A DNA stretch of 64,000 bases from a virus, in IMG/VR virus record IMGVR_UViG_3300050119_000104, positions 53,460-117,459 of that record, one strand, 5' to 3'. The position numbers and the translations under genes are program-made. The notes under the pieces are model-generated. The model made no database searches and was not told the DNA's origin. It saw nothing but the letters and a program-made list of their open reading frames with translations. Shown piece by piece: positions 7,580 through 64,000 of this stretch; position 1 is the first letter of the stretch; each line of letters opens with the position of its first letter.

Positions 7580-8490
7580 GTATCATTTTCGCGCAGCAGG
7601 ACAGGACGGGCACCGTAGCTCAGATCACGGTCGCCGCCGCGCCCGCTAATCCAATTGCCGTCAATGACACCGGAACCATTGCAGGCGTGCAACCGTGGAA
7701 CGGCAACGAAGTGTCACTCGCGTTCACGGTCGGGCAAATCCTGAACACGGCGCAATTCGGTATCACGACCGCGCTTCCGAACGGCGCGGGTCCTGGCGAA
7801 GTGCTGCAAAGTGGATGGCCAGAAGCAGGCAGTGTAATCACGTGGATCACTGGCGCGAATGCCGAGACGACTTCCGCCGTGACGCAGATGGTTCCAGCCA
7901 ACGCCTACATCACGTCGAATTTCTTCAAGGAATATCACGCCTCACGCGGCAACGTGTACGGCACACCGACGACCGCGCAATTGCAGCAGGCAATAGTTCA
8001 AGGCACGGACTATCTCGATCAGTGGTATCGCTTCAAAGGCGTGAAGCTCCTGCAATTTCTTGGCGGCAACGATATCCTCGATCCGATGCTGCCATTTATT
8101 GATCCGTGGCTTAGCCCGTTCGGTTTCACTCAAACTGCATTCTATGTACCGAGCACTACGCAACAGGCAACGGAATGGCCTCGTCAGGGCGTGGTCGATT
8201 TCAATGGTGATAACGTATACGGAATTCCAAAAGCAATTTCATTCGGGTGCGCGGAGCTTGCGCTTCGCATGATCAATGGCATCATCCTCCAACCGGATTA
8301 CGATCCGACTGTCGTGTTAGCCGGAGCCATCATTGAGTCAGCTTCCCAGGAGGTCGGCCCAATCAAGGTGTCCGCGACTTATGATACCAAGCTCGGGATC
8401 GGATTTTTCGCGGACTTCCCGCACGTGAGTCGTTTATTGGCGAAGGCGGGACTCTTGATTGCTTCTGGCGGCCACCAGATTATTAGGTGA
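7576..8490 (+). CDS. Head-tail connector / adaptor (DnaT-like domain family)
   Basis: ANAYIT..FF..YH..RG, AIVQGTDYLD..YRFKG and Q.TEWPR motifs; synteny. Confidence 0.7.
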   Translation: MSIIFAQQDRTGTVAQITVAAAPANPIAVNDTGTIAGVQPWNGNEVSLAFTVGQILNTAQFGITTALPNGAGPGEVLQSGWPEAGSVITWITGANAETTSAVTQMVPANAYITSNFFKEYHASRGNVYGTPTTAQLQQAIVQGTDYLDQWYRFKGVKLLQFLGGNDILDPMLPFIDPWLSPFGFTQTAFYVPSTTQQATEWPRQGVVDFNGDNVYGIPKAISFGCAELALRMINGIILQPDYDPTVVLAGAIIESASQEVGPIKVSATYDTKLGIGFFADFPHVSRLLAKAGLLIASGGHQIIR

Positions 8491-8494
8491 TGGG

Positions 8495-8863
8495 ATGGCA
8501 GGAACCTTCAATTATCGAGCACTTGCGGCCGTCGCTGACAAGCTCATTCTGCAATTCGGCATGGCCGCATCGCTGCGCCCCGTCGGCGCAACGGATAGTT
8601 CGCAGGATCGTCCGTGCACAATTGTCATCACCGAGTATGATCCGCACGATGCTGCGACCCAACTCACGAACCCGACCGACCGCAAAATCCTCATTGCGCC
8701 GGGATTGGGCGCAGTTCCAGGCCAGCCGCCTGACAATGAAAAAGACCAGATAGTCGTTCTCATTGGCCCGGATGCAGGCCGGGTGCTCCCATTTACAAGT
8801 CCGGTCAAGCTTTACTCGCCCGCCGGGATTATAGTCCTTTATGAGTCAACGGTCCGTCGCTAA
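8495..8863 (+). CDS. Head closure / head-tail joining protein
   Basis: NYRALAAVADKLILQFG N-terminus; synteny. Confidence 0.6.
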   Translation: MAGTFNYRALAAVADKLILQFGMAASLRPVGATDSSQDRPCTIVITEYDPHDAATQLTNPTDRKILIAPGLGAVPGQPPDNEKDQIVVLIGPDAGRVLPFTSPVKLYSPAGIIVLYESTVRR

Positions 8864-8924
8864 ATTTACCCGGTTGCAGACGCCCCCGATCTATGGTTAA
8901 TGACAGCCTGGAAGGCCCTGGAAT

Positions 8925-9443
8925 ATGACGCAGTTTGATCGACGGCAGGCGATTTTGGTGGAGCTTGGTTCAATGCTGGCGGCGCTCGTGCCGACCATCG
9001 TTTTGACCGGGACGCAAGGAACGCCAGCGGGGTTTGCTACCGGAGGCTACGTGCACAATCGCAACGAGCTTCCACAAGGTTTAGTCCCTGGCATCATTCT
9101 GTTAGATGCTGATGAGTTACCTGGGGGAACGCCGGTAATACCCGGCCGGGCGCAGACAAGGATCGCGCCGCAGATAATGAAGATGACGCCGGAAATTTAC
9201 GTCGTGTTGGACGTGCGAAAGCCGAACAACTTAAACGTGGGAGAGGATTTAGATTTAGCGCGGATCGCGATCCTTCAAGGAATTTGGACGGATCAGACCC
9301 TGCTGAATTTGGTTAGTTCGAATGGACGAATTGTTGTTGAAGCCTGCGTGACCGATCTCGCGCGCAACCGGACGATGCAAGGCCAATTGGGAATTTCAAT
9401 GTCGTTCTACTATCCACTGCTACCAAACGAGATCATCGGTTAA
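8925..9443 (+). CDS. Probable tail terminator protein
   Basis: Size and position immediately before the tail tube gene. Confidence 0.5.
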   Translation: MTQFDRRQAILVELGSMLAALVPTIVLTGTQGTPAGFATGGYVHNRNELPQGLVPGIILLDADELPGGTPVIPGRAQTRIAPQIMKMTPEIYVVLDVRKPNNLNVGEDLDLARIAILQGIWTDQTLLNLVSSNGRIVVEACVTDLARNRTMQGQLGISMSFYYPLLPNEIIG

Positions 9444-9554
9444 ACGAGCGCGAAAATGCCGAAGCAAGTCGGTCGAGCAGATCATCCAATCGTATGCTTT
9501 ACTCATGCGATCCATAGTTTCACACCCGTGCTCGCTGCATAAAGGGAGGCTCCC

Positions 9555-10127
9555 ATGGCTGGATTTCTCGATATTGAGGGCAGTTTAACCTCCCCCAACA
9601 TAGGCAATTATTACATCGGCCGTGGCGTGGTCTCAATCAAAGTTCTCGGTGAGGAAGTATTCACTGATTGCGGCAACTGCCCGACGTTCGAATTCTTGGC
9701 GAAGGTAACGCAACTCGATCACTATTCGAGTCGTTCCGGTGTCCGCGTCAAGGATTTCGTCGCGACTACGCAAATCAGCGGCATGCTGACGATGGTCCTT
9801 GAGGAATTCACCGCGCGCAACATGGGTTTCGCTATGCTTGGGGTCACCCCGACCGTTGGCAGCGGTCCGTCGCCGTTGGAGGAAACCCTCGACATCTTCT
9901 CGACGCCCGTCCTGTACGCCGCCGTGCAATTCGTTGGCGACTCGCTCGTCGGCCCGGCATGGACGGTTGAATTCCCGCTCGTGCAACTGACCCCGAACAA
10001 GGCCATTTCGTTGATCGGCAATACCTGGGGCACGCTCGATCTACAGGGCGACGTTCTGTTCGACCAAGCCAGCGGCACTTTCGGCACTGCATTCGTCTCG
10101 CTGCCGAATAGCCCGGTCAAGGACTAA
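9555..10127 (+). CDS. Major tail (tube) protein
   Basis: NYYIGRG.V..K, GNCP.FE, HYSSR.G.R.KD motifs; GGAGG RBS. Confidence 0.75.
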   Translation: MAGFLDIEGSLTSPNIGNYYIGRGVVSIKVLGEEVFTDCGNCPTFEFLAKVTQLDHYSSRSGVRVKDFVATTQISGMLTMVLEEFTARNMGFAMLGVTPTVGSGPSPLEETLDIFSTPVLYAAVQFVGDSLVGPAWTVEFPLVQLTPNKAISLIGNTWGTLDLQGDVLFDQASGTFGTAFVSLPNSPVKD

Positions 10128-10229
10128 ATACGCAAGCGCGTATATTTTGACTTTAAGCGCACTCGCGTATAAAAAGGTCGGCACCTGCGTGTAGGGTGCC
10201 GACATCTGCACACCCCCCGGAGGCTCCCA

Positions 10230-10619
10230 ATGACAGATCAACCGCAACCGCGTCCCTTCCCCGTCAAAGACTCAGGCGTAAAGCCTTTCGATCCCGCTCG
10301 GGAACAAAATGTGGCTTTGGACGCCAGCGCAACAGGCGCCCCGTGGCCCTTCCCAGGAGCCCACACAGCCGATCCTGCGCCTGCCGCCCCACATACCCAG
10401 CCAACACCTGCGGCCGTCCCTGCGACGCCCGGTGCCCCGCCTGCGGTCAATTCCCCGGTGTCGGAGCCTGCGACTGCGCCGCTCCCGGCCGCCGTGCATG
10501 CCGCGCCCCCGAGCAAGACCTCGCAAGAGCGGCTACTCATCCAGCGGCAAACACAGAAACCCGCCGCGCTCGGGCCGAATTCGACAACGACCCCACCCTA
10601 CCCCGGCTACGGCCGATAA
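10230..10619 (+). CDS. Pro/Ala-rich hypothetical protein
   Basis: GGAGG RBS; low-complexity sequence. Confidence 0.5.
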   Translation: MTDQPQPRPFPVKDSGVKPFDPAREQNVALDASATGAPWPFPGAHTADPAPAAPHTQPTPAAVPATPGAPPAVNSPVSEPATAPLPAAVHAAPPSKTSQERLLIQRQTQKPAALGPNSTTTPPYPGYGR

Positions 10620-15236: not shown

Positions 15237-15541
15237 AAGACGCGAAGGGCCACGGCTCCGAAGCACACGGCGCACATAGCGCAGGCGTCGATCAAGTCGG
15301 CCACCCGCCGTCGCCGCCGCAGTTCGGCAAAAGTCCGATAGCAAACGCACGCGAGGCCGCACGTTACATCAATGAGTCAGGGCACCCGGCAGAGATTTAT
15401 CGGAAAGCCAGGTCAACTGTAGCGGCGATCTATTCCAATACCGACAACAAAATCCATGTCAATGTTTCAAACTCGTTCTGGAAAGACCCGGTCGGCAGTA
15501 TGGTGAGGAACAACGCGAGCGGTCATCTTTCACGCGCGTGA
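15233..15541 (+). CDS. Small protein with N-terminal MKDAKGHGSE motif (copy 2)
   Basis: GGAG RBS; same first 10 aa as the upstream ORF. Confidence 0.6.
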   Translation: MKDAKGHGSEAHGAHSAGVDQVGHPPSPPQFGKSPIANAREAARYINESGHPAEIYRKARSTVAAIYSNTDNKIHVNVSNSFWKDPVGSMVRNNASGHLSRA

Positions 15542-15614
15542 TGTGGGGCGGCACAATTTATTGAGTCCCGATGCGACCAAAGAAGCGCTTCGGAAGTTCG
15601 CAGGAGTGTAGATC

Positions 15615-15896
15615 ATGGGAAAAGATGCTTTAGGACACGGTTCCGATCCACGCGGCGGCGCACGTAGCGACGCCATCTCGCGCGGACTCAAGATTGATTT
15701 CCGGCGCTACCCGGGCGGCGGCGCGCAGGATCGCGCGACGACTGTAGCCAAGGGCTATCGCCCGGGACCAGGAGGGCGTCGAGACATGCCGGGCGCCCTA
15801 GGCGGCGCGCCGTCCGATCTATGGCGATCAAAACGATTTGCGACTCCGGCGGCGCATCAAGAGGGCGTTACCGCGCTTAAGGGAAAGAAGTTGTGA
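15615..15896 (+). CDS. Small protein with N-terminal MGKDALGHGS motif (copy 3)
   Basis: AGGAG RBS; motif variant. Confidence 0.6.
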   Translation: MGKDALGHGSDPRGGARSDAISRGLKIDFRRYPGGGAQDRATTVAKGYRPGPGGRRDMPGALGGAPSDLWRSKRFATPAAHQEGVTALKGKKL

Positions 15897-16084
15897 TGTA
15901 CAACGCGCCCGACAATTTCATGGGCGGCCCGGACCAAGCTACAGCACGTAGTCAGGTCTCTAAATACGCTGCGATGAACCCAAAAGAGTTTGTGAGCGAG
16001 GTTCACGCCGGGATGAAGGCTGGAAAGTCGTACTCACACGACGTGATGAGAATGTTCTCGCAATACGCACGAGTAAGAAAATGA
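15893..16084 (+). CDS. Small ORF resembling a C-terminal fragment of a zincin-like domain
   Basis: VSKYAAMNPKEFVSEVHAG motif. Confidence 0.4.
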   Translation: MMYNAPDNFMGGPDQATARSQVSKYAAMNPKEFVSEVHAGMKAGKSYSHDVMRMFSQYARVRK

Positions 16085-18771
16085 CCGCGCTATTACCCTT
16101 CTTTTTTGCGTGGGTTGACTCGGATCAAAAGACGTTTGATCCGACCACGATGAACGTTATGGATGAGGCCATTTTCTCGATCAACCTCAAGCACGAGGAA
16201 GGTCAGGTCCCCGATCTTGAAATCGTAATCTTCAACCCGCGCGTCGGGCTACTCGCTCCCGGCCGCAAGCAATGGGCATGGCTGTCCTACCAGCCACCGG
16301 ATGCCGCGACAGTAACCGCGATCAATGCGAAGTTTGGTACAAGCTACACGTATCCGTGCATCCTTCCGATATTTTTTGGTGAGCTAGTTGGCATCCCCTC
16401 CGATCTATTTGCCGAGAAGATCACACTGAAACTCATCTCACGGTCGCGGAATTTTATCGAGGACAAGCAAGCCGTCGCCGAGACACTCAAAGTCGCTCCG
16501 AACTACGATCCGATTTTCCTGGATGAGACGCACCGGGACGAGCCTGATGCGATCCTCGAAGGCTGGTCATCGCTTTATCATACCGACCGCACAACACTCG
16601 CGACTTCCGCGTCCGATATCTTGACCGGAGAAGATGGCACGATTGTTTTCGAACAGGGAGATGCGTTCTATGACTCGGTTAAGATGACCGTCGGCGAGTC
16701 ACCTCTCACCAATATCCGAATAGAAGCCAGCGTAAATTGGACCCAGCGTAGCAGCGGCTACGTCGATGGCCCGAATGTGAATATCATAAGCTATACCGGC
16801 GACTCTTTCATGGGTGATTGGCCAAAGCCGGGCGCAGGTGTCGGCGGCGGGTGGCATGTTGAAACCAGTTTCGTGAATGACGTTTACAAAATTACGCAAA
16901 CTCCAACAGTGAATATCAGCGCGTCGTGGACTACTACTTCGACGCAGATGGAAGATTGCAGTGTCAATTCCACGCACAATTCGGCGTCGTTTCCGGCGCT
17001 CTTATCGCCGTCCCCGCTCTCTACCACTTTAACTTGGCATGAAGTTGTTGGCGATTGTAATCCTTTCAGTACGCCCCCCGTTAACAGGGGCGCGAGTATG
17101 GAGCTTACCGGCCTTACGGTTCCCTTATGGGCGCTGAACTGTACATGGACCTTGCGCTACGATGCGAAGCGCAGCTATTCGGAAATGTTGGTGATGGATG
17201 TCGCCGCCAACACCCAAGCCATTCTTACGTCACCCACCGTCGAACAGAATACCGAACTTATGAAAGTCAGCGGTACCGATGTGGGCCAGCCCCTCATCAT
17301 TTACGATGCATGGTCAGATTTCGCGAGTGCTCCCGTCGGGGTGACACAGCTAATCTTCCCGAACGATGCTACAACCCCCGGCGGTTTGTCATATCAGATT
17401 TGCGTGCAAGCAGGCACTGCGGGCGCGACTGAACCAGTTTTCAGCGACATTCCTGGCACGATCACCGATGACGGCACGGTGCAATGGGCGAGCTTAGGTG
17501 AGTCACCATTGAACGCTATCCAACAAATGACGTTCGCGACGCATTACGCGTCGGGCACTATTTTGCTCTATCAGGAGCAAATTTTCGATCCAAATACCGG
17601 CGGCCTTATCGATGTGCCCGGCGCTACCTCCTACTGGCTTTGCGTTGGAGCATGCTCGACGACCGATCAGTACACTGAGATGACCTACATTCCGCCGGTC
17701 ACCACTAGCGACGAGCCCACGCCCGCGCCGGTCACCGTTTATTTAGAGTGGTTCTCGCCCAGCGGTGCTAATATGGGCGGCAGCAGTTTGATCGGCGGAG
17801 GCATTGGCGGCGGTCAATTCTCTTCCGGCGGAGCCGGTGTTGCAGCCCTCGGTGGCTTCACTGACCTTGGGATTGCTCCGTCATTTCTCGGTATTCCCAT
17901 CGGCGGCACGGCGGATAACGTGACCGCCAACAACTTCTTTCCGAGTGATCGAGGACAACAGAGTATCCAATATCTTATTTGTAAAGCCCGTGCGCGGCTG
18001 CGGCTACGTTCTCGCGCTGTCAAAGTCATGTGGGATTGCCCATTCTATGCCGTGGCGGGCATGTCCTGCCGCATGAATGCGACACTGTTTGACCCACGCC
18101 TGCCCGGCGGCACAGCAACTGGTAAAATCACTTCCTACACGATGAGTGCAAGTGAAGGTAAAATGATTGGGCATATTGAAGCAGGATGCGCAGTTGGCTA
18201 CGGCGGCGTCGTCGAAGCAATCGTGGGGACGCCGGAATATGTAGCAGACAACACTTACGTTGGCACCGGAGTCTACCAAGTCTACGATGGTGCAACGACG
18301 GCAGTATTCCCCACAGATAGCAACGATATCAGCTACACTCCGCCGGGCTATGTACCCTATGACGATGGCTTGAGTTTCCCGCTCAGTTATTTGCCAGCGA
18401 ACGTTTCCATAAGTGGTTCAGCGAGTGCGCAAGCGACAGCTATCAAGGCCGCGTTCCCACTCGCGGCGCAGTTAGCACAGACTTCGGTGATCCTGAACCA
18501 GACCTACACTTCGACGGAGACCGGCATGGACGGGTCCACTACGACAACTACAAACAGCGGCGGTACCGCATCGGCAGATTGGTGGCTCGAACAATTGGAA
18601 TTCTATGACACCGCCCACTCGATCCCGTATATTATGGAGTCCAATCCGGTCTCAGCCGAGATTTTGATCCAGCCGGTGACCAATGGTCCATTCAACGCCG
18701 CGTACACCGTCACTGTCAGTCCACTCGAAATTCCTCTCGGAATTGATCTTGAAGCCCCCTCTAGTCCATAA
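16081..18771 (+). CDS. Tail tip / hub (central tail) protein
   Basis: 896 aa; position after the distal tail gene; internal CBM-like segment. Confidence 0.65.
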   Translation: MTALLPFFFAWVDSDQKTFDPTTMNVMDEAIFSINLKHEEGQVPDLEIVIFNPRVGLLAPGRKQWAWLSYQPPDAATVTAINAKFGTSYTYPCILPIFFGELVGIPSDLFAEKITLKLISRSRNFIEDKQAVAETLKVAPNYDPIFLDETHRDEPDAILEGWSSLYHTDRTTLATSASDILTGEDGTIVFEQGDAFYDSVKMTVGESPLTNIRIEASVNWTQRSSGYVDGPNVNIISYTGDSFMGDWPKPGAGVGGGWHVETSFVNDVYKITQTPTVNISASWTTTSTQMEDCSVNSTHNSASFPALLSPSPLSTTLTWHEVVGDCNPFSTPPVNRGASMELTGLTVPLWALNCTWTLRYDAKRSYSEMLVMDVAANTQAILTSPTVEQNTELMKVSGTDVGQPLIIYDAWSDFASAPVGVTQLIFPNDATTPGGLSYQICVQAGTAGATEPVFSDIPGTITDDGTVQWASLGESPLNAIQQMTFATHYASGTILLYQEQIFDPNTGGLIDVPGATSYWLCVGACSTTDQYTEMTYIPPVTTSDEPTPAPVTVYLEWFSPSGANMGGSSLIGGGIGGGQFSSGGAGVAALGGFTDLGIAPSFLGIPIGGTADNVTANNFFPSDRGQQSIQYLICKARARLRLRSRAVKVMWDCPFYAVAGMSCRMNATLFDPRLPGGTATGKITSYTMSASEGKMIGHIEAGCAVGYGGVVEAIVGTPEYVADNTYVGTGVYQVYDGATTAVFPTDSNDISYTPPGYVPYDDGLSFPLSYLPANVSISGSASAQATAIKAAFPLAAQLAQTSVILNQTYTSTETGMDGSTTTTTNSGGTASADWWLEQLEFYDTAHSIPYIMESNPVSAEILIQPVTNGPFNAAYTVTVSPLEIPLGIDLEAPSSP

Positions 18772-29410: not shown

Positions 29411-29486
29411 GGGGCCATAGCTCAGTTGGTAGAGCGCCTGTTTTGCAAGCAGGATGTCGGTGGTTCAAATCCATCTGGCTCCACCA
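29411..29486 (+). tRNA. tRNA-Ala(UGC)
   Basis: Full cloverleaf, G3:U70 pair, anticodon TGC, GGTTCAAATCC T-arm, encoded CCA. Confidence 0.95.
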
Positions 29487-30068: not shown

Positions 30069-30142
30069 GGCCCTGTCGTTTAATGGCAGGACGCGGCGCT
30101 TTGACCGCCGAGACGTGAGGTCGAGACTCACCGGGGCTTCCA
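30069..30142 (+). tRNA. tRNA-Gln(UUG), atypical
   Basis: Anticodon arm CGGCG-CTTTGAC-CGCCG and encoded CCA. G1.U72, U73 and T-loop GTCGAGA deviate from the canonical form. Confidence 0.75.
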
Positions 30143-30184: not shown

Positions 30185-30260
30185 CAGGGCGTAGCTCAGT
30201 TGGTAGAGTACCGGACCCGGACTCCGGGGGTCGTCAGTTCAAGTCTGACCGCCCTGACTA
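30185..30260 (+). tRNA. tRNA-Pro(CGG), atypical or decaying
   Basis: C1-G72/A73 acceptor and CCGGA-CCCGGAC-TCCGG anticodon arm; C33, A37, and the gene ends in CTA. Confidence 0.7.
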
Positions 30261-39215: not shown

Positions 39216-39812
39216 TTATTCGACCGGCGGCTGCTTCCGCTTGCGAGGCCATCCTGGTTCAAAGACAAACTTGTCGGAGACGGGCTTGTTTTCCCGCTTC
39301 GCCGCTTCGCCGACCGCAGTGTAGGGTGGGACGGCATTCGGCATGCGCGCGGTGATCTCTTTGATTTTCTCGTTCATGTCCTCCTGCCATCCGCTCGGTA
39401 GCGGCGGCGGTCGGTCATCCACGAAATTTTTCATGAACATCGCGTCGCGGAGTACCACGAGAGAAGCGAGAGCTTTACCGATGTGGCTGATACCTGAAGC
39501 TGGGTCGATATCCTCGCCCTCGAACCACGCGGTCAGATGGCGCATGGTCGCGTCATAATAGACGCTCGCGCGCACGCCAATGACTCGATAGTTATGCCGT
39601 CCATATTTGCGGGCACCTTCAAACATGCCAACTCCGATCTCGGCAATGACGGCGGATGATACCGTCGAGAACGGCACTTTGAGAATGCCGAGCACGTCTT
39701 TCGGATTGGAAGGTTTCGCAGTTGGATTGTTGGCAACGATTTCCGTATTGAGTACGTCATCGGGATTCGTGCTTATCCGGTTGACACCCACAACCTCTTT
39801 ATCTTGGGTCAT
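39216..39812 (-). CDS. dATP/dGTP diphosphohydrolase-domain (DUF5664-like) protein, N-terminus replaced by the TIR element
   Basis: NPKD..G..K.P, GARKYG..N.R, RHL..W..GEDID..SG..H motifs; the first 15 codons lie inside the element. Confidence 0.75.
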   Translation of the reverse strand: MTQDKEVVGVNRISTNPDDVLNTEIVANNPTAKPSNPKDVLGILKVPFSTVSSAVIAEIGVGMFEGARKYGRHNYRVIGVRASVYYDATMRHLTAWFEGEDIDPASGISHIGKALASLVVLRDAMFMKNFVDDRPPPLPSGWQEDMNEKIKEITARMPNAVPPYTAVGEAAKRENKPVSDKFVFEPGWPRKRKQPPVE

Positions 39813-40903
39813 GCGGCCCTCCGGCTTTCGTCTCCACGACGCTGAGCACTCAGCGCGAGAATGTTCCGTGCGGCATTTGTGTCACGGTCATGGACCGCTC
39901 CGCATCCGCCGCACATCCATTCCCTTATTCCAAGCTCTGCGATACCTTTAGGGCCACAACGCGCACCGCACGTTGAACAGAGTTGGGAAGTCCATCGCTC
40001 ATCGGCCTCAATGTACGTCGCCCCGTGCCTGCTGGCCTTGTAGCGGAGCGCCGACCGGAACGAGGACCAAGAGGCGTCGAGCACGGATTTAGCCATCCGT
40101 GTTCGGGCCATCTGCGCCGCGTTCACATTGCCGACGACGATCAGGCGATTGTCCGCAGCGATGCGGGCCGTCGCCTTATGGATGTGATCTTTCCGGGCAT
40201 TCGCGATCTTGGCATGAATAGCCTTGGTGCGCTTGCGGTTACCGGCGCGCTGCGCCGTGGCAAGTGCCCGTTCGTATTGGCGGTAGTGGCGGAGCGCGGG
40301 GACCGAAGTGCCATCGCTGCACGCCGCAAGGGTTTTCAGCCCCAAATCAATGCCGATTTCGCCGTTGCCTATAGGCAAATCGGCAACATCGACGTGGAAG
40401 CACACGTACCAGCGTCCGCGTGCATCCTCGACGAACGCTCCACCTTTTGCGGTTGGCGGTAATGGCCGTCGCGCTTGCCAGAAATGGTAGACCTTGCCGA
40501 GATAGGTGATCGTGTTGGCTGATACCTGACGGCTCTGACCCTGAAACGGTATCCAGCCCAAAGCGCGCGATCCGCGCCAGCGCAATGAGCGCTTTGCCTT
40601 GTCGCGACTCCGCGCATACTGCTCGCACACCGAGCCGACCGTCTGCGCATGAATGCCCAAGTCCTTCGACGTGCCTTTGGTCATCCGTTGTAGGTCGAAA
40701 TGCGACGGCCATTTGCGCTTCGGCGACCCATCGCGGTAGCGCGCCTCGATGTCATGCTGTACCTCGTTGCAGTAATTCCAGACGACGTTGCACGCTTTCG
40801 CATGCCGCCGAAGGGTCTTTTTGGCGGAGCGGTCCTTGATGCGATAGCGGTAAGTCAAGATCATCTGGGTTTAGTACCTGTGGGTGTCAACCGGATAAGC
40901 ATG
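39768..40903 (-). mobile_element. 1136-bp TIR-bounded tnpB element, copy 1 (IS1595/ISSod11-like ends, no transposase)
   Basis: 25-bp TIR CRTGCTTATCCGGTTGACACCCACA at both ends; identical to the copy at 62885. Confidence 0.9.
39809..40864 (-). CDS. tnpB: TnpB with rearranged RuvC-II (G in place of E; alternative E downstream)
   Basis: IGIDLG; LIVVGNV; ADERWTSQLCSTCG; CGGCG.VHDRDTNAARNI. Confidence 0.92.
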   Translation of the reverse strand: MILTYRYRIKDRSAKKTLRRHAKACNVVWNYCNEVQHDIEARYRDGSPKRKWPSHFDLQRMTKGTSKDLGIHAQTVGSVCEQYARSRDKAKRSLRWRGSRALGWIPFQGQSRQVSANTITYLGKVYHFWQARRPLPPTAKGGAFVEDARGRWYVCFHVDVADLPIGNGEIGIDLGLKTLAACSDGTSVPALRHYRQYERALATAQRAGNRKRTKAIHAKIANARKDHIHKATARIAADNRLIVVGNVNAAQMARTRMAKSVLDASWSSFRSALRYKASRHGATYIEADERWTSQLCSTCGARCGPKGIAELGIREWMCGGCGAVHDRDTNAARNILALSAQRRGDESRRAA

Positions 40904-41432: not shown

Positions 41433-42278
41433 TCAATAGTCAGGTGACAAACCTAAGTCGTCCGAATTCAGACCCTGGGGCGCACTCACGTCAGCGGGCG
41501 TCGGGCAGCGCGCTCTTGTGGCGCGGATCACTTTGGTCTGCTTCTCGCCGCGATATTCAGAATGTTCTTTAACCGACGCGCGCAGCGTGAACGTTTCGCC
41601 AACTTCGGTTTTGAAAGCGGGCGACATGCAGACGATGGAATTCCCGGCGGCGTCGCGCATGGTCGAAACGTAGACCGTTTGCGCGCGGTCGTAGTAGCCG
41701 AAGCCAGCGCGCTCGAACGTCGAAACACGCTCGACCGTGACCGCGACTTCGATGCGCTTGCCGATCTCACCAACGTGGCCGCTACCGGCGACCGCGACGG
41801 CCCGAGCCTCGCACTTGTCACACGCGGAAATCAGCGTAGCCATCTGCTTTTCGGACAGGTTGCCGGTCCGCGCGACGGTTTCCATAACGCTCGCGATAAA
41901 CGGGTTCTGCTCCGAAAACTTGGCAGCGCGCTCGAACAGCGGACCATTGTCCCGCGTGACGACGGCCCAGCGCTCCGCGCGCTCGGCGGCAATTTTAGCG
42001 ACCTTCACGGCGAGCTTCTCGGCCTTCGCAGCGGCCTTTTTATCAGCGGTCGCGTTCAGCTTTGCGAGTTGCTCGGCGGTGTAGAGCTTATGGCAGACGA
42101 TGGAACCACGGCCGGAACCGCCGCACTGGAAGCAGGTCCAGCCGGTGAACTTCCAGACCTCAGAACCGCCCTGGCCGCCGCAGCGGCCGCAGGGGCTCTC
42201 CTTGGTGATCGAGGGCGCACCCTTGGCGTTGATTTGGGGTGTGCCGGTGAACAGGGGACCAGTTCGGGGCGCGGTCAT
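41433..42278 (-). CDS. Zn-finger (CxxCxG) + OB-fold-like protein
   Basis: CGRCGG/CFQCGG and the C-terminal GHVGEIGKRI...TLRASVKEHSEYRGEKQT motif. Confidence 0.65.
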   Translation of the reverse strand: MTAPRTGPLFTGTPQINAKGAPSITKESPCGRCGGQGGSEVWKFTGWTCFQCGGSGRGSIVCHKLYTAEQLAKLNATADKKAAAKAEKLAVKVAKIAAERAERWAVVTRDNGPLFERAAKFSEQNPFIASVMETVARTGNLSEKQMATLISACDKCEARAVAVAGSGHVGEIGKRIEVAVTVERVSTFERAGFGYYDRAQTVYVSTMRDAAGNSIVCMSPAFKTEVGETFTLRASVKEHSEYRGEKQTKVIRATRARCPTPADVSAPQGLNSDDLGLSPDY

Positions 42279-42354
42279 GGGTTTTTCTCCGCCCTCTACA
42301 TGGCACGGCTCGGGGGAGCCAGCCAGCGGAACCTTGGAAGGAGGTTAAGAGACC

Positions 42355-42595
42355 CATGCTTATCCGGTTGACGCCCAATGCTTGACAGCTACCTGGAATT
42401 TTGCTTTTCTCCGTTCCGACAATCGCCTCCGATTGATTGGGGGTATCTAAAGACCATGTTTCCGTCGTCTGTTCGCGCCGAAAGGTAGAACGGCGATGAA
42501 TAAGGTCCATTTCGGTGGATCGCGCAGAGTGCTCTGCGTCCTGTAGAGGAGAGCCGGGTTCGTGTCGCCCATTGGGCGTCAACCGGATAAGCACG
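42355..42595 (+). mobile_element. 241-bp MITE A (putative omegaRNA cassette), 8-bp TSD AAGAGACC
   Basis: 26-bp TIR; TSD at 42347-42354 and 42596-42603; structured non-coding interior. Confidence 0.9.
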
Positions 42596-43157
42596 AAGAG
42601 ACCGTAAAGGGCTCGCTAGGGCTCAGTTTTCCGCTCCGGTGGGGCATCCATAGCCCAGGAGTGGAAAAACGCGCCAGCGGGCTTCCTCGTGGCTTTGTAG
42701 AGGGTTCTATTCTCCGCATCGGATCGCCATTCCCCCATTGAAGGCATCTTATCGCCCTTAAAGGTGCCCGAGCGGGGCACACGAGGGGGGCATATTCTTT
42801 GCAGCGGAGGTTGCTGAAGCTGTTTTTATGGGAAGGGCGCTAGGGCCGTTACCCTTTGGCGGTATTGCCGCGCAGAATAAGCAGGCGCTGCCATTGCGAT
42901 TCGATCAGGGCGTCGAATTCGACGAGGTTCCCGCATGTCGAGCGCACTAGCCATGCTTCACGCTCCTGCACGTTCGGCCGCTTCCATCCGACGGCTGAAC
43001 GCTTGCGCCTCGAATGCGCGAGCATGCGCCGAGTCATCAATGGGGTGGAATAGCCGCGTGTAGAAGTGCCGACCGTCCGTGGTCGTTATGAACACCTCTG
43101 AGAAGGGGCGATCTTCGCCCCGCCGCTCGATCCGCACCTCCGCGACTTCGGGTGCGC

Positions 43158-48558: not shown

Positions 48559-48799
48559 CGTGCTTATCCGGTTGACGCCCAATGGGCGACACGAACCCGG
48601 CTCTCCTCTACAGGACGCAGAGCACTCTGCGCGATCCACCGAAATGGACCTTATTCATCGCCGTTCTACCTTTCGGCGCGAACAGACGACGGAAACATGG
48701 TCTTTAGATACCCCCAATCAATCGGAGGCGATTGTCGGAATGGAGAAAAGCAAAATTCCAGGTGGCTGTCAAGCATTGGGCATCAACCGGATAAGCATG
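48559..48799 (-). mobile_element. 241-bp MITE B (putative omegaRNA cassette), 8-bp TSD TTATGTTT
   Basis: Inverted near-identical copy of MITE A (about 3 substitutions); TSD at 48551-48558 and 48800-48807. Confidence 0.9.
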
Positions 48800-57982: not shown

Positions 57983-58067
57983 CGTGCTTATCCGGCTGAC
58001 GCCCAATGGACGACACGAACGGAAGAAAAGCAAAATTTCAGGTAGCTGTCAAGGTAGGTGTCAACCG
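57983..58067 (-). mobile_element. Decayed MITE C (internal deletion, one end truncated)
   Basis: CGTGCTTATCCGGCTGACGCCCAATG joined to GAAAAGCAAAATTTCAGGTAGCTGTCAAG, both from the MITE sequence. Confidence 0.8.
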
Positions 58068-62433: not shown

Positions 62434-62508
62434 CGCGCAGAGTGCTCTGCGTCCTGTAAAGGAGAGCCGGGTTCGTGTCGCCCATTGGGCGTCAACCGGA
62501 TAAGCACG
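62434..62508 (+). mobile_element. Half MITE D (omegaRNA core hairpins + right TIR)
   Basis: CGCGCAGAGTGCTCTGCGTCCTGTAAAGGAGAGCCGG...GTCAACCGGATAAGCACG. Confidence 0.85.
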
Positions 62509-62884: not shown

Positions 62885-64000
62885 CGTGCTTATCCGGTTG
62901 ACACCCACAACCTCTTTATCTTGGGTCATGCGGCCCTCCGGCTTTCGTCTCCACGACGCTGAGCACTCAGCGCGAGAATGTTCCGTGCGGCATTTGTGTC
63001 ACGGTCATGGACCGCTCCGCATCCGCCGCACATCCATTCCCTTATTCCAAGCTCTGCGATACCTTTAGGGCCACAACGCGCACCGCACGTTGAACAGAGT
63101 TGGGAAGTCCATCGCTCATCGGCCTCAATGTACGTCGCCCCGTGCCTGCTGGCCTTGTAGCGGAGCGCCGACCGGAACGAGGACCAAGAGGCGTCGAGCA
63201 CGGATTTAGCCATCCGTGTTCGGGCCATCTGCGCCGCGTTCACATTGCCGACGACGATCAGGCGATTGTCCGCAGCGATGCGGGCCGTCGCCTTATGGAT
63301 GTGATCTTTCCGGGCATTCGCGATCTTGGCATGAATAGCCTTGGTGCGCTTGCGGTTACCGGCGCGCTGCGCCGTGGCAAGTGCCCGTTCGTATTGGCGG
63401 TAGTGGCGGAGCGCGGGGACCGAAGTGCCATCGCTGCACGCCGCAAGGGTTTTCAGCCCCAAATCAATGCCGATTTCGCCGTTGCCTATAGGCAAATCGG
63501 CAACATCGACGTGGAAGCACACGTACCAGCGTCCGCGTGCATCCTCGACGAACGCTCCACCTTTTGCGGTTGGCGGTAATGGCCGTCGCGCTTGCCAGAA
63601 ATGGTAGACCTTGCCGAGATAGGTGATCGTGTTGGCTGATACCTGACGGCTCTGACCCTGAAACGGTATCCAGCCCAAAGCGCGCGATCCGCGCCAGCGC
63701 AATGAGCGCTTTGCCTTGTCGCGACTCCGCGCATACTGCTCGCACACCGAGCCGACCGTCTGCGCATGAATGCCCAAGTCCTTCGACGTGCCTTTGGTCA
63801 TCCGTTGTAGGTCGAAATGCGACGGCCATTTGCGCTTCGGCGACCCATCGCGGTAGCGCGCCTCGATGTCATGCTGTACCTCGTTGCAGTAATTCCAGAC
63901 GACGTTGCACGCTTTCGCATGCCGCCGAAGGGTCTTTTTGGCGGAGCGGTCCTTGATGCGATAGCGGTAAGTCAAGATCATCTGGGTTTAGTACCTGTGG
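62885..64000 (-). mobile_element. TIR-bounded tnpB element, copy 2 (runs off the window edge)
   Basis: Identical to 39768-40883 at an offset of 23117 bp. Confidence 0.9.
62926..63981 (-). CDS. tnpB: TnpB with rearranged RuvC-II, identical to copy 1
   Basis: Translation identical to 39809-40864. Confidence 0.92.
   Translation of the reverse strand: MILTYRYRIKDRSAKKTLRRHAKACNVVWNYCNEVQHDIEARYRDGSPKRKWPSHFDLQRMTKGTSKDLGIHAQTVGSVCEQYARSRDKAKRSLRWRGSRALGWIPFQGQSRQVSANTITYLGKVYHFWQARRPLPPTAKGGAFVEDARGRWYVCFHVDVADLPIGNGEIGIDLGLKTLAACSDGTSVPALRHYRQYERALATAQRAGNRKRTKAIHAKIANARKDHIHKATARIAADNRLIVVGNVNAAQMARTRMAKSVLDASWSSFRSALRYKASRHGATYIEADERWTSQLCSTCGARCGPKGIAELGIREWMCGGCGAVHDRDTNAARNILALSAQRRGDESRRAA

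Follow-up and report, generated by a model that had tools for sequence, protein, structure and literature searches.

TnpB proteins are the ancestors of the Cas12 nucleases, and a published question is why, in prokaryotes, TnpB seems bound to IS200/IS605 and IS607 elements, with their scarless excision. The IS1595 family reportedly combines a transposase of the DDE_Tnp_IS1595 and zinc-ribbon type with 8-bp target-site duplications, frequent passenger genes and MITE derivatives, and ends of the form nnnGCnTATC are, we take it, those of ISSod11-like IS1595 elements. We know of no RNA-guided nuclease among the classical IS1595 members, and of no structured RNA in an end. Gene-less IS605-type elements with omegaRNA-like ends, termed PATEs, are said to be usable by TnpB in trans. 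In the omegaRNA of ISDra2 (PDB 8H1J, 8EXA, 8BF8), a pseudoknot occupies positions −6 to −2 and is coaxial with stem 1 (PMC10097598), and for one IS607 TnpB the pseudoknot is functionally required (PMC10711439).

We consider it likely that a short segment of a peat phage contig, 42522-42603 of the 64,000-nt stretch analysed here (the window, from IMG/VR record IMGVR_UViG_3300050119_000104), holds the 3′ core of a TnpB omegaRNA scaffold integrated into the right inverted repeat of an IS1595-family cut-and-paste element, a reading that takes in at the same time a guide drawn from the flank, a candidate TAM and the cutting of empty sites (Table 1). The carrier is neither of the usual two for TnpB, IS200/IS605 (Y1) or IS607 (serine recombinase), but has DDE-type IS1595 ends instead. 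Outside the window, the parent contig (L001) encodes at 8212-9255 on the minus strand a 347-aa IS1595 transposase (Pfam DDE_Tnp_IS1595, 1e-34; N-terminal zinc ribbon, 1e-11), which sits in an element (8172-10421) with identical ends and a perfect 8-bp duplication and which lies between the same inverted repeats in L111 and L224 as well. No family was matched by a 591-aa plus-strand open reading frame of this 2.25-kb element, which we take to be probably spurious; the true gene is that of the 347-aa transposase on the opposite strand. The TnpB of the window matches Pfam OrfB_IS605 and Cas12f1-like_TNB and NCBIfam guided_TnpB (213 bits); in the alignment its catalytic D172, E288 and D325/D327 and its CxxC pairs are invariant, and the closest solved structure is that of ISDra2 TnpB (E 1e-21). 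Around the relatives in this TnpB clade whose scaffolds are not of the inverted-repeat type, no inverted repeats were found.

The element that carries the segment can be called a MITE: it is short and transposase-free, shares its inverted repeats with the autonomous element and is present in multiple copies, with about ten sister copies in the contig, six of them bearing perfect and mutually different duplications. It starts with CATGCTTATC. Perfect 8-bp duplications were found at 82 of 128 paired elements of the repeat family. As a source of missing duplications, inversion between two copies in one IMG/VR contig (L021/L030) was considered and dropped because the flanks do not fit. A consensus scan for promoters and terminators over 42300-42700 returned none. 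One contig from an RNA library spans 42431-42595 and nothing further upstream within the MITE, a weak indication; because assemblies break at repeat borders, this contig is unfit to define the RNA ends.

Table 1. Scaffold-bearing elements of the window and their parts, numbered from the first base of the window.
Feature	Positions	Strand	Remarks
TnpB cassette, 1136 bp	39768-40903	−	Same inverted repeats; left CATG at 40903, right CACG at 39768; no flanking duplication
OmegaRNA scaffold core of the TnpB cassette	39769-39849	−	GUGCU 39849-39845; AGCAC 39773-39769
tnpB, 351 aa	39809-40864	−	Intact RuvC D/E/D triad and zinc finger
Candidate TAM position	42343-42346	+	Four bases 5′ of the left duplication, here GGTT; T42345 is the conserved T at −10
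Left target-site duplication	42347-42354	+	AAGAGACC; identical to the right copy, 42596-42603
Non-autonomous IS1595-type MITE, 241 bp	42355-42595	+	Scaffold only, no ORF; 18-nt inverted repeats at both ends; perfect 8-bp duplication
Left terminal inverted repeat	42355-42372	+	Ends CATG
Possible −35 box of the MITE's own promoter	42382-42387	+	TTGACA, read from sequence; poor −10
Hairpin 1	42522-42539	+	6-bp stem 42522-42527 : 42534-42539; apical A42528, then GUGCU
Pseudoknot 5′ strand, GUGCU	42529-42533	+	Pairs with AGCAC 42590-42594
Small 3-bp hairpin	42540-42549	+	CCU GUAG AGG; 3′ of hairpin 1; in MFE fold
CCGG, 5′ half of the stem closing on the inverted repeat	42554-42557	+	Pairs with 42583-42586; in MFE fold
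Right terminal inverted repeat	42578-42595	+	CCGG 42583-42586, AUA linker 42587-42589, AGCAC 42590-42594, G(−1) 42595
Putative guide region	42596-42615	+	First 8 nt are the right duplication copy, then unique flank; from pseudoknot register and element boundary
Second scaffold-only MITE, 241 bp	48559-48799	−	Duplication TTATGTTT (plus strand)
MITE remnant	57983-58053	−	Internal deletion; CACG right end kept, hairpin 1 lost
Further scaffold	62435-62508	+	Hairpin 1 and CACG end; 5′ part unlike that of the MITE
Second TnpB cassette copy	62885-64000	−	Right-end CACG at 62885; runs off the contig end

The initial annotation of this stretch had pointed out that the loop GUGC(U) of hairpin 1 is complementary to AGCAC near the right end of the element, and the sequence agrees, with AGCAC stopping one base short of the last base, G42595. 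Within this single contig both the loop and the repeat are invariant, and complementarity there is indistinguishable from coincidence. Whether loop and end covary among homologues had been named beforehand as the test of the reading, and they do: among 26 scaffolds gathered through TnpB protein homology, the pseudoknot helix is 99.2% paired (alignment A3, columns 20-24 with 129-133), and at four of the five pairs both partners vary, only G42529:C42594 being invariant. The combinations met among relatives include GCGC/GCGC, GCAC/GUGC, GCGUU/AACGC, GCGUC/GACGC, GUGUU/AACAC, GUGUC/GACAC and GUGUA/UGCAC. When the 3′ partner was slid by one to three columns only 30-40% of positions paired, and the observed score was reached in none of 500 shuffles. 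In the wider clade, the exact complement of the locus's own loop was present at 44 of 62 protein-anchored loci (71%), as against a chance level of 9.8% for a downstream 5-nt complement to a foreign loop.

The remaining helices behave in the same manner. In the 26 scaffolds, the stem of hairpin 1 is 99.4% paired with five of six pairs changing on both sides, and the CCGG/CCGG stem shows 98% pairing and covariation at three of its four pairs; the cassette and the MITE themselves differ by a compensatory A-U/U-A swap in the hairpin stem. For the small hairpin, inspection of alignment A4 by eye gave the both-side changes CCU/AGG, CGU/ACG, CAU/AUG and CCA/UGG. The energy-drawn hairpin 1 leaves only four free loop bases, so a 5-bp pseudoknot needs the closing A-U pair to be opened, which is plausible. 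What emerges is a structured RNA scaffold with three helices supported by compensatory changes, overlapping the 3′ end of tnpB and stopping at the last base of the element; no Rfam family matched it at gathering thresholds or up to E 10. Judged by this covariation, the pairing between loop and end is a real H-type pseudoknot. It might instead be supposed that the scaffold ends before the repeat, which would then itself be the guide and target sibling ends, or that the match of loop and end is coincidental and the loop a protein contact. We find this scarcely credible: the invariance of loop and repeat would agree with it as long as this contig alone is considered, but 12 of the 15 named pairs change on both sides, including pairs within the repeat at −14 to −11 and −6 to −3, and matches to a locus's own loop far outnumber those to foreign ones.

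That the terminal inverted repeat doubles as scaffold, as the annotation had also supposed, is borne out by its composition. With its CCGG core the repeat supplies the 3′ side of a covarying stem, which makes the terminal 13 nt of this IS1595-type end part of the scaffold; the last six of these are taken up by the pseudoknot strand followed by G(−1). Together with the AUA linker, these six bring the scaffold to a close exactly at the transposon edge. Relatives that have lost the left end retain the segment CGGAUA....CG, and its retention without a left end points to a constraint at the level of RNA. One short stretch of DNA thus probably serves both the transposase and the TnpB nuclease.

The pseudoknot lies in the register −6 to −2, equal to that of the solved ISDra2 omegaRNA (PMC10097598), so that the guide should begin at the first flanking base, which is that of the 8-bp duplication. 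By analogy with ISDra2, a guide starting inside the repeat would be excluded, and a guide that begins with the duplication, as initially proposed, is the best reading; the one-sided motif 5′ of the left duplication appears to support it. Most TnpB cassettes, that of the window included, are without a duplication, and their guide therefore does not start with duplicated sequence. As for the motif, T at −10 was found in 22 of 24 left flanks of scaffold-bearing elements versus 54% for scaffold-less ones (Fisher p = 2e-4), AT in 16 of 24 versus 24% (p = 2e-5), and T on the mirrored right side in just 10 of 24. This left-only motif (T at −10, usually AT), situated directly 5′ of the duplication, is compatible with a candidate TAM. 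Because the family transposase itself favours T at −10, as the 54% indicates, the motif is partly a target preference and not a TAM.

Eukaryotic Fanzors with inverted repeats have the 3′ duplication in the scaffold and the 5′ copy in the TAM (PMC10711439; PMC13565253), and by the same design the duplication here could be absorbed in the scaffold or act as TAM, with the guide starting after the 8 duplicated bases. We think this very improbable. That design uses a short fixed duplication, whereas the present one spans 8 nt and varies in sequence, showing no more than a loose RTWNNWAY preference; next to scaffold-bearing elements its 3′ half is not additionally conserved, and the motif is one-sided and lies upstream of the duplication, outside it. 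Moreover, eight unconstrained bases between pseudoknot and guide would break the −6 to −2 geometry of ISDra2.

Exact IMG/VR searches for joined flanks found no empty allele of the MITE at 42355 and, with a gap of 0-30 nt allowed, none of the TnpB cassette at 39768-40903; contigs from three peat DNA runs and one RNA run contained no joint skipping the MITE. As no empty allele was recovered for scaffold-bearing insertions, the proposition that the guide would match the empty allele in full draws on the duplication only. The first 16 nt of 17 right-flank guides had no second site in the contig at ≤3 mismatches, with the sole exception of a MITE inserted in the left end of a sibling.

The initial annotation reported six scaffold-side ends reading ...AAGCACG and intact opposite ends reading CATG. 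This agrees with the window (...AAGCACG at 39768−, 42595+, 48559−, 57983−, 62508+ and 62885−; CATG at 40903, 42355 and 48799), and across the 117-kb contig the scaffold-side end is CACG in 16 cases and a degenerate TACG in one, all intact left ends being CATG. The accompanying proposal that the pseudoknot explains this asymmetry survives only in part. Perfect duplications flank 24 distinct CATG/CACG elements that lack a scaffold, and the autonomous L224, with its own transposase, shows the same asymmetry without a scaffold. Because the combination is common where there is no scaffold, the asymmetry was not created by the pseudoknot; it belongs to the standing polymorphisms of the IS family and is older than the RNA. 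What does stand is that −2 is C wherever a scaffold abuts the end, pairing with the invariant loop G in 26 of 26 cases and never as G-U, although the 26 lineages are not independent for this argument, as the scaffolds bearing the inverted repeat may share one capture. No case of T at −2 was lost through filtering, and when the last six bases were left out of the covariance model, it placed no scaffold at any of about 200 CATG ends. Hairpin-based detection had suggested four scaffolds at CATG ends, which inspection and the covariance model ruled out as false.

Could the asymmetry merely be inherited from a tnpB-capturing ancestor that by chance, and without selection, had CATG on the left and CACG on the right? 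The scaffold-less asymmetric elements and the equally asymmetric L224 are what such a history predicts, and all scaffolds of the inverted-repeat type have a homologous 3′ end, compatible with one capture. Nevertheless, positions −6 to −3 have changed repeatedly in step with the loop over TnpB identities down to ~50%, −2 has stayed unchanged in the 26 lineages, and the CATG ends are consistently without a scaffold, and we regard simple inheritance as unlikely.

A second cause would fit the asymmetry equally well, since by its sequence a CATG right end would recreate the candidate TAM, NATN, beside a perfect guide match. It is a real possibility, although not the one toward which we lean, that the pseudoknot exists but C at −2 is kept mainly as self-protection of this kind, the difference in pairing strength between G-C and G-U being secondary: with CATG immediately before a perfect match, TnpB would cut its own right junction. 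The strongest base of the flank motif, the T two bases before the duplication, is in the same register as the T of CATG, and G-U pairs, never found at −2, do occur at three other positions of the pseudoknot. In addition, CACG ends transpose normally in scaffold-less elements, as their perfect duplications attest, so the transposase accepts T as well as C, and the fixation of C must have another cause. On the other hand, the TAM is itself a candidate only. If self-protection were the main cause, immobilised relatives without a left end would be expected to show A or G at −2 together with a matching change in the loop, and this was seen in 0 of 26; relatives outside the inverted-repeat type have A:U or G:C at the same pair by covariation, which indicates an RNA-level constraint.

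Taking pairing and TAM avoidance together, we propose the following mechanism. Transcripts begun at tnpB, or at a weak promoter within the MITE itself, would read through the right end, so that the guide would be the flank, starting with the 8-nt duplication, and TnpB would require an NATN TAM immediately 5′ of its target. At an empty site, NATN would be followed by the duplication sequence and the right flank, a full guide match. At an occupied site, the left junction would match the guide over 8 nt only, and the right junction would match in full but be preceded by CACG instead of NATN. Cutting would then be limited to empty sites, which may help the element to be retained or to spread within the phage population, and selection would hold C at −2 wherever a scaffold uses the end, both as the partner of the invariant loop G and as the base that breaks the would-be TAM. 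A bolder version, which we offer as speculation and think doubtful in its entirety, is that a phage-borne IS1595 lineage has rebuilt the guide RNA from its repeat as closing stem and pseudoknot, that C for T at −2 is at once a pseudoknot pair and a switch removing the TAM, and that the roughly ten promoter-bearing MITEs are dispersed guides for one TnpB acting in trans and cutting every unoccupied site. If true, this would be a multi-locus homing system between competing phage genomes. The self/non-self rule, candidate TAM NATN versus CACG end, is testable, and the compact natural scaffolds (~75 nt from hairpin 1 to guide), together with guide cassettes that have a possible promoter, are of potential use to engineers of miniature editors.

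PATEs have IS200/IS605 ends and are moved by Y1, whereas the shells here are MITEs of the IS1595 type that may have their own promoter. The likeness to ISDra2 (Nakagawa et al. 2023, PMC10097598) is close at the level of RNA: the apical loop of an upstream stem pairs with −6 to −2, with a single base left between pseudoknot and guide, scaffold and tnpB overlap at the 3′ end of the gene, the scaffold stopping at the right transposon boundary, and the TnpB is homologous. The carriers differ, in that ISDra2 is a Y1 element with subterminal hairpins and the present one is of the DDE IS1595 type with inverted repeats and 8-bp duplications; unlike in ISDra2, the pseudoknot strand and a stem half are here the transposase's inverted repeat, the loop has 6 nt as compared to 19 nt, and the guide would open with duplicated target sequence. 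The IS607 TnpB of ISXfa1 and the Fanzor2 and Fanzor1 reRNAs (Yoon et al. 2023, PMC10711439) likewise have a conserved and required guide-adjacent pseudoknot and a scaffold that adapts to the bases the transposase needs at the end, and some Fanzors also reside in elements with inverted repeats and duplications (PMC10711439). In those systems, however, a fixed right-flank base or a short fixed duplication is absorbed in the scaffold, while the long variable duplication described here is most readily taken for the opening 8 nt of the guide; the present case also differs from them in being prokaryotic, phage-borne and carried by IS1595.

The DDE-1 to DDE-6 TnpBs of Altae-Tran et al. 2023 (PMC10691335) resemble ours in lying inside symmetric inverted repeats, in including solo TnpBs with the ends of transposase-bearing elements, implying mobilisation in trans, and in having the 3′ end of tnpB no more than 250 bp from the element end. 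The main text of that paper names IS630, with no occurrence of IS1595, and we found in it no account of bases shared by scaffold and repeat, of a TAM or of scaffold-only MITEs. Earlier publications have described both the pseudoknot principle and TnpBs associated with DDE elements, and the present case is a refinement of them and not a new class: it suggests a route by which a guide RNA may be re-fitted to a DDE carrier that has inverted repeats and a duplication both long and variable, the RNA taking the bases of the repeat for its stem and pseudoknot, the loop being re-tuned, and the two co-evolving thereafter.

The window forms the final 64 kb of a 117-kb contig, and its DNA is found repeatedly in peat metagenomes; positions 41900-43100 are present in 18 peat-metagenome DNA runs of differing studies and years, so the phage or close relatives are widespread in peat. 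The clustered tRNA genes (see table) are consistent with a large phage genome. The 241-bp element lacks an ORF, and a TTGACA box and several hairpins precede its pseudoknot stretch. The TnpB cassette carries tnpB as its sole gene (351 aa, intact, with Pfam and NCBIfam matches), and the catalytic D/E/D and zinc-finger columns are conserved on alignment. Six ends in the window read ...CACG and three read CATG, matching the initial annotation, which had placed CACG on the scaffold side and CATG opposite; in the whole contig, 16 CACG ends and one degenerate TACG end are all scaffold-side, and every intact left end is CATG. The 281-aa ORF beside the element has no family in Pfam or NCBIfam, and a contig from an RNA library spans part of it (41913-42112).

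Features of the window and, where stated, of the rest of the contig
Feature	Position	Strand	Remarks
Scaffold-only MITE, 241 bp	42355-42595	+	18-nt terminal inverted repeats, flanked by perfect 8-bp duplication
8-bp duplication AAGAGACC	42347-42354 and 42596-42603		perfect
TTGACA box	42382-42387
Hairpin 1 stem, 6 bp	42522-42527 with 42534-42539
GUGCU, after apical A	42529-42533
AGCAC	42590-42594
G	42595		final element base
TnpB cassette, 1136 bp	39768-40903	-	bounded by same repeats as MITE
281-aa ORF	41433-42278	-	many CxxC-like motifs; immediately left of MITE
Three tRNA genes	29411-29483, 30069-30139, 30185-30257	+	clustered
Transposase element, 2250 bp	8172-10421 (contig)
Second TnpB cassette	15708-16846 (contig, outside window)
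Further scaffold-only MITE	15472-15706 (contig, outside window)		inserted in left end of second cassette

The 2250-bp element shares the MITE's repeats, has CATG at each end and is flanked by a perfect 8-bp duplication. It encodes a 347-aa protein with a DDE_Tnp_IS1595 domain (E 1e-34) and an IS1595 zinc ribbon; a longer ORF on the opposite strand, without a family, is probably spurious. Scanning IMG/VR and metagenomes with the end sequences yielded several hundred loci, with elements of 0.2-2.25 kb and perfect 8-bp duplications at 82 of 128 pairs, and the examined elements of 1.6-2.25 kb encoded either a transposase of this kind or other cargo. We thus conclude that the shells are IS1595-family transposons, with the TnpB cassettes and the scaffold-only MITEs as their non-autonomous passengers. 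The target preference of the repeat family is RTWNNWAY, which is loosely palindromic, and 56% of flanks have A at outward position 10. Two other loci have the same IS1595-type ends around different cargo (L097:400-2382 and L111:3727-5491): in one element, an IS1595 zinc ribbon is fused to HNH endonuclease and HTH domains, and in the other, a fragment like a C-5 DNA methylase lies beside the transposase.

The pseudoknot proposed in the initial annotation, between the hairpin 1 loop and the element's end, is clearly borne out by covariation, the absence of which that annotation had set as a ground for refutation. Because loop and repeat are invariant within the contig, relatives were brought in by a protein-based search (80 IMG/VR loci with TnpBs 47-96% identical, and one MAG locus), each anchored on the conserved HDRD..NA..N motif before the downstream DNA was read. 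Co-variation of loop and end is seen in the subclade with a 3' end like the IS1595 repeat: GUGCU/AGCAC in the window corresponds to GCGC/GCGC (L006, L052), GCAC/GUGC (L015), GCGUU/AACGC (L025), GCGUC/GACGC (L041), GUGUU/AACAC (L033), GUGUC/GACAC (L055), GUGUC/GGCAC (L016, L031) and GUGUA/UGCAC (L059). When 26 distinct scaffolds were aligned with MAFFT, 99.2% of pseudoknot cells were paired, with 4 of 5 pairs changed on both sides; the corresponding values were 99.4% and 5 of 6 for hairpin 1, and 98% and 3 of 4 for the CCGG/CCGG stem. The observed helix values were equalled by none of 500 shuffles, and pairing fell to 30-40% when the 3' partners were shifted by 1-3 columns. Independently of alignment, 44 of 62 distinct relatives held an exact downstream complement of their own five loop bases, versus 9.8% for loops borrowed from other loci. 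Relatives without terminal inverted repeats, around whose scaffolds such repeats were sought and none found, share this design but differ in sequence (GACAU/AUGUC, AACGU/ACGUU, GGCUG/CAGCC, etc.). Two loci are irregular: at L034:2223-2500 the 3' end of tnpB is duplicated in tandem, producing two successive scaffolds, the first of which would have a guide equal to part of tnpB itself, and at L040:2218-2370 about 40 nt are inserted in the apical loop of hairpin 1 and a second copy of the element's last 10 bases follows its right end.

The conserved scaffold order is hairpin 1 with six apical bases, the last five paired; a 3-bp mini-hairpin; a stem with a CCGG:CCGG base around a variable hairpin; a 3-nt linker (AUA, AGA or AAG); the 5-nt pseudoknot strand; one base (G); and then the flank. 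The energy fold closes an A-U pair beneath a GUGC tetraloop, and the 5-bp pseudoknot would require this pair to open, with the A as a one-base crossing loop, a reading that is consistent with the 6-nt loops of relatives lacking the repeats. Counted back from the right transposon boundary, AGCAC lies at -6 to -2, the register of the pseudoknot in the solved ISDra2 complex, where it stacks on stem 1 (PMC10097598); the activity of an IS607 TnpB depends on its pseudoknot (PMC10711439). The last 13 nt of the repeat therefore belong to the scaffold, which excludes a guide beginning inside the repeat, and the repeat, containing one CCGG stem half and the pseudoknot strand, doubles as scaffold up to the guide boundary, as had been proposed. 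Retention of CGGAUA....CG in relatives that have lost the left end points to constraint on these bases from the RNA as well as from the transposase. Both the pseudoknot and this dual role of the repeat are strongly supported.

The claim that the pseudoknot explains the CACG/CATG asymmetry stands only in part. A metagenome scan with the CACG-ended repeat found 127 ends, with a scaffold at just 8, and 24 distinct elements without a scaffold, all flanked by perfect duplications, combine a CATG end with a CACG end; another asymmetric element (L224) has its own transposase. The asymmetry was thus not created by the pseudoknot, and either base is tolerated by the transposase. What holds is that scaffolds always abut C(-2): it is present in 26 of 26 protein-anchored lineages, from which the selection pattern had discarded no case with T at -2, and in all 26 it forms a G:C pair with the invariant first loop base, G-U being accepted at three other pseudoknot positions. 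A covariance model lacking the last six bases found a scaffold at none of ~200 CATG ends, and drift and covariation at positions -6 to -3 accumulated across the evolutionary distance over which -2 stayed fixed. These patterns indicate selection on -2 at all ends used by the RNA. Retention of C as the terminal pseudoknot pair fits, as does the possibility that T would license self-cleavage, since CATG would match the candidate TAM NATN directly before DNA fully matching the guide; simple inheritance of the asymmetry is a third and weaker possibility.

Because the scaffold ends at G(-1), the guide is probably the flank that follows, its first 8 nt being the duplication wherever one is present; the earlier proposal of such a guide start is thus probable, and a one-sided flank motif also favors it. 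Constraint acts on the four bases immediately preceding the left duplication and is confined to that side: T(-10), two bases 5' of the duplication, occurs in 22 of 24 left flanks of scaffold-bearing elements and 54% of scaffold-less flanks (Fisher p 2e-4), and AT at -11/-10 in 16 of 24 and 24% (p 2e-5). The two exceptions to T(-10) are doubtful left-end calls, and the mirrored right side is at background (10/24). The motif is a candidate TAM (the short motif TnpB needs beside its target), NATN, overlapping the transposase's own flank preference. In Fanzors the duplication is taken up in scaffold or TAM (PMC10711439, PMC13565253); that design fits poorly here, because the duplication is long and variable, its 3' half is unconserved beside scaffold-bearing elements, and the constrained bases lie instead 5' of it. 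Exact joined-flank searches of IMG/VR for the MITE and the window cassette, and peat-run contigs, recovered no empty alleles. The scaffold-only MITE at contig 15472-15706 sits in the left end of a sibling cassette, the TnpB of which shares 60% identity with that of the window, so the putative guide of this MITE reads the sibling's inverted repeat; against the left end of every other copy, this guide has 2-3 mismatches.

Perfect duplications flank 10 of 10 transposase-bearing elements of 1.6-2.25 kb and most cargo MITEs. They are absent from most TnpB cassettes inspected (that of the window and L005, L014, L020, L022, L027, L030 and L400); about 2 of 12 distinct insertions have one, and in two cases just 4 of 8 bases are shared. 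Because cassettes without a duplication retain the left-flank T(-10) motif, the change seems to lie in the right flank.

The anatomy supports mobilisation of both TnpB cassettes and MITEs by an IS1595 transposase in trans. By analogy with IS605 TnpB homing, read-through transcripts would then fold as scaffold with the flank as guide, and TnpB would cut where NATN is followed by the duplication and the right flank, an arrangement unique to the unoccupied site. The occupied site would be protected, its left match being only 8 nt and its right match preceded by CACG, and cutting empty sites in co-infecting genomes would favor retention or spread. One peat metatranscriptome library holds a 168-nt contig over 42431-42595 and none over the element's left 75 nt, a weak hint of expression, as contigs cannot define RNA ends and assemblies break at repeat borders.

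TnpBs within DDE-type inverted repeats and solo TnpBs with such ends have been described (PMC10691335), as have the pseudoknot principle (PMC10097598, PMC10711439) and scaffolds absorbing transposase-required bases (PMC10711439). IS1595 is unmentioned in the main text of PMC10691335, and a full-text literature search for TnpB with IS1595 returned nothing relevant. Seemingly new, being absent from the literature examined, are the TnpB-IS1595 partnership, the dual role of the repeat base by base, a variable duplication as guide start, the TAM/CACG logic and scaffold-only MITEs, possibly promoter-bearing, of an IS1595-type repeat family. Whereas Fanzors incorporate the duplication into scaffold or TAM, here it is long, variable and the probable start of the guide.
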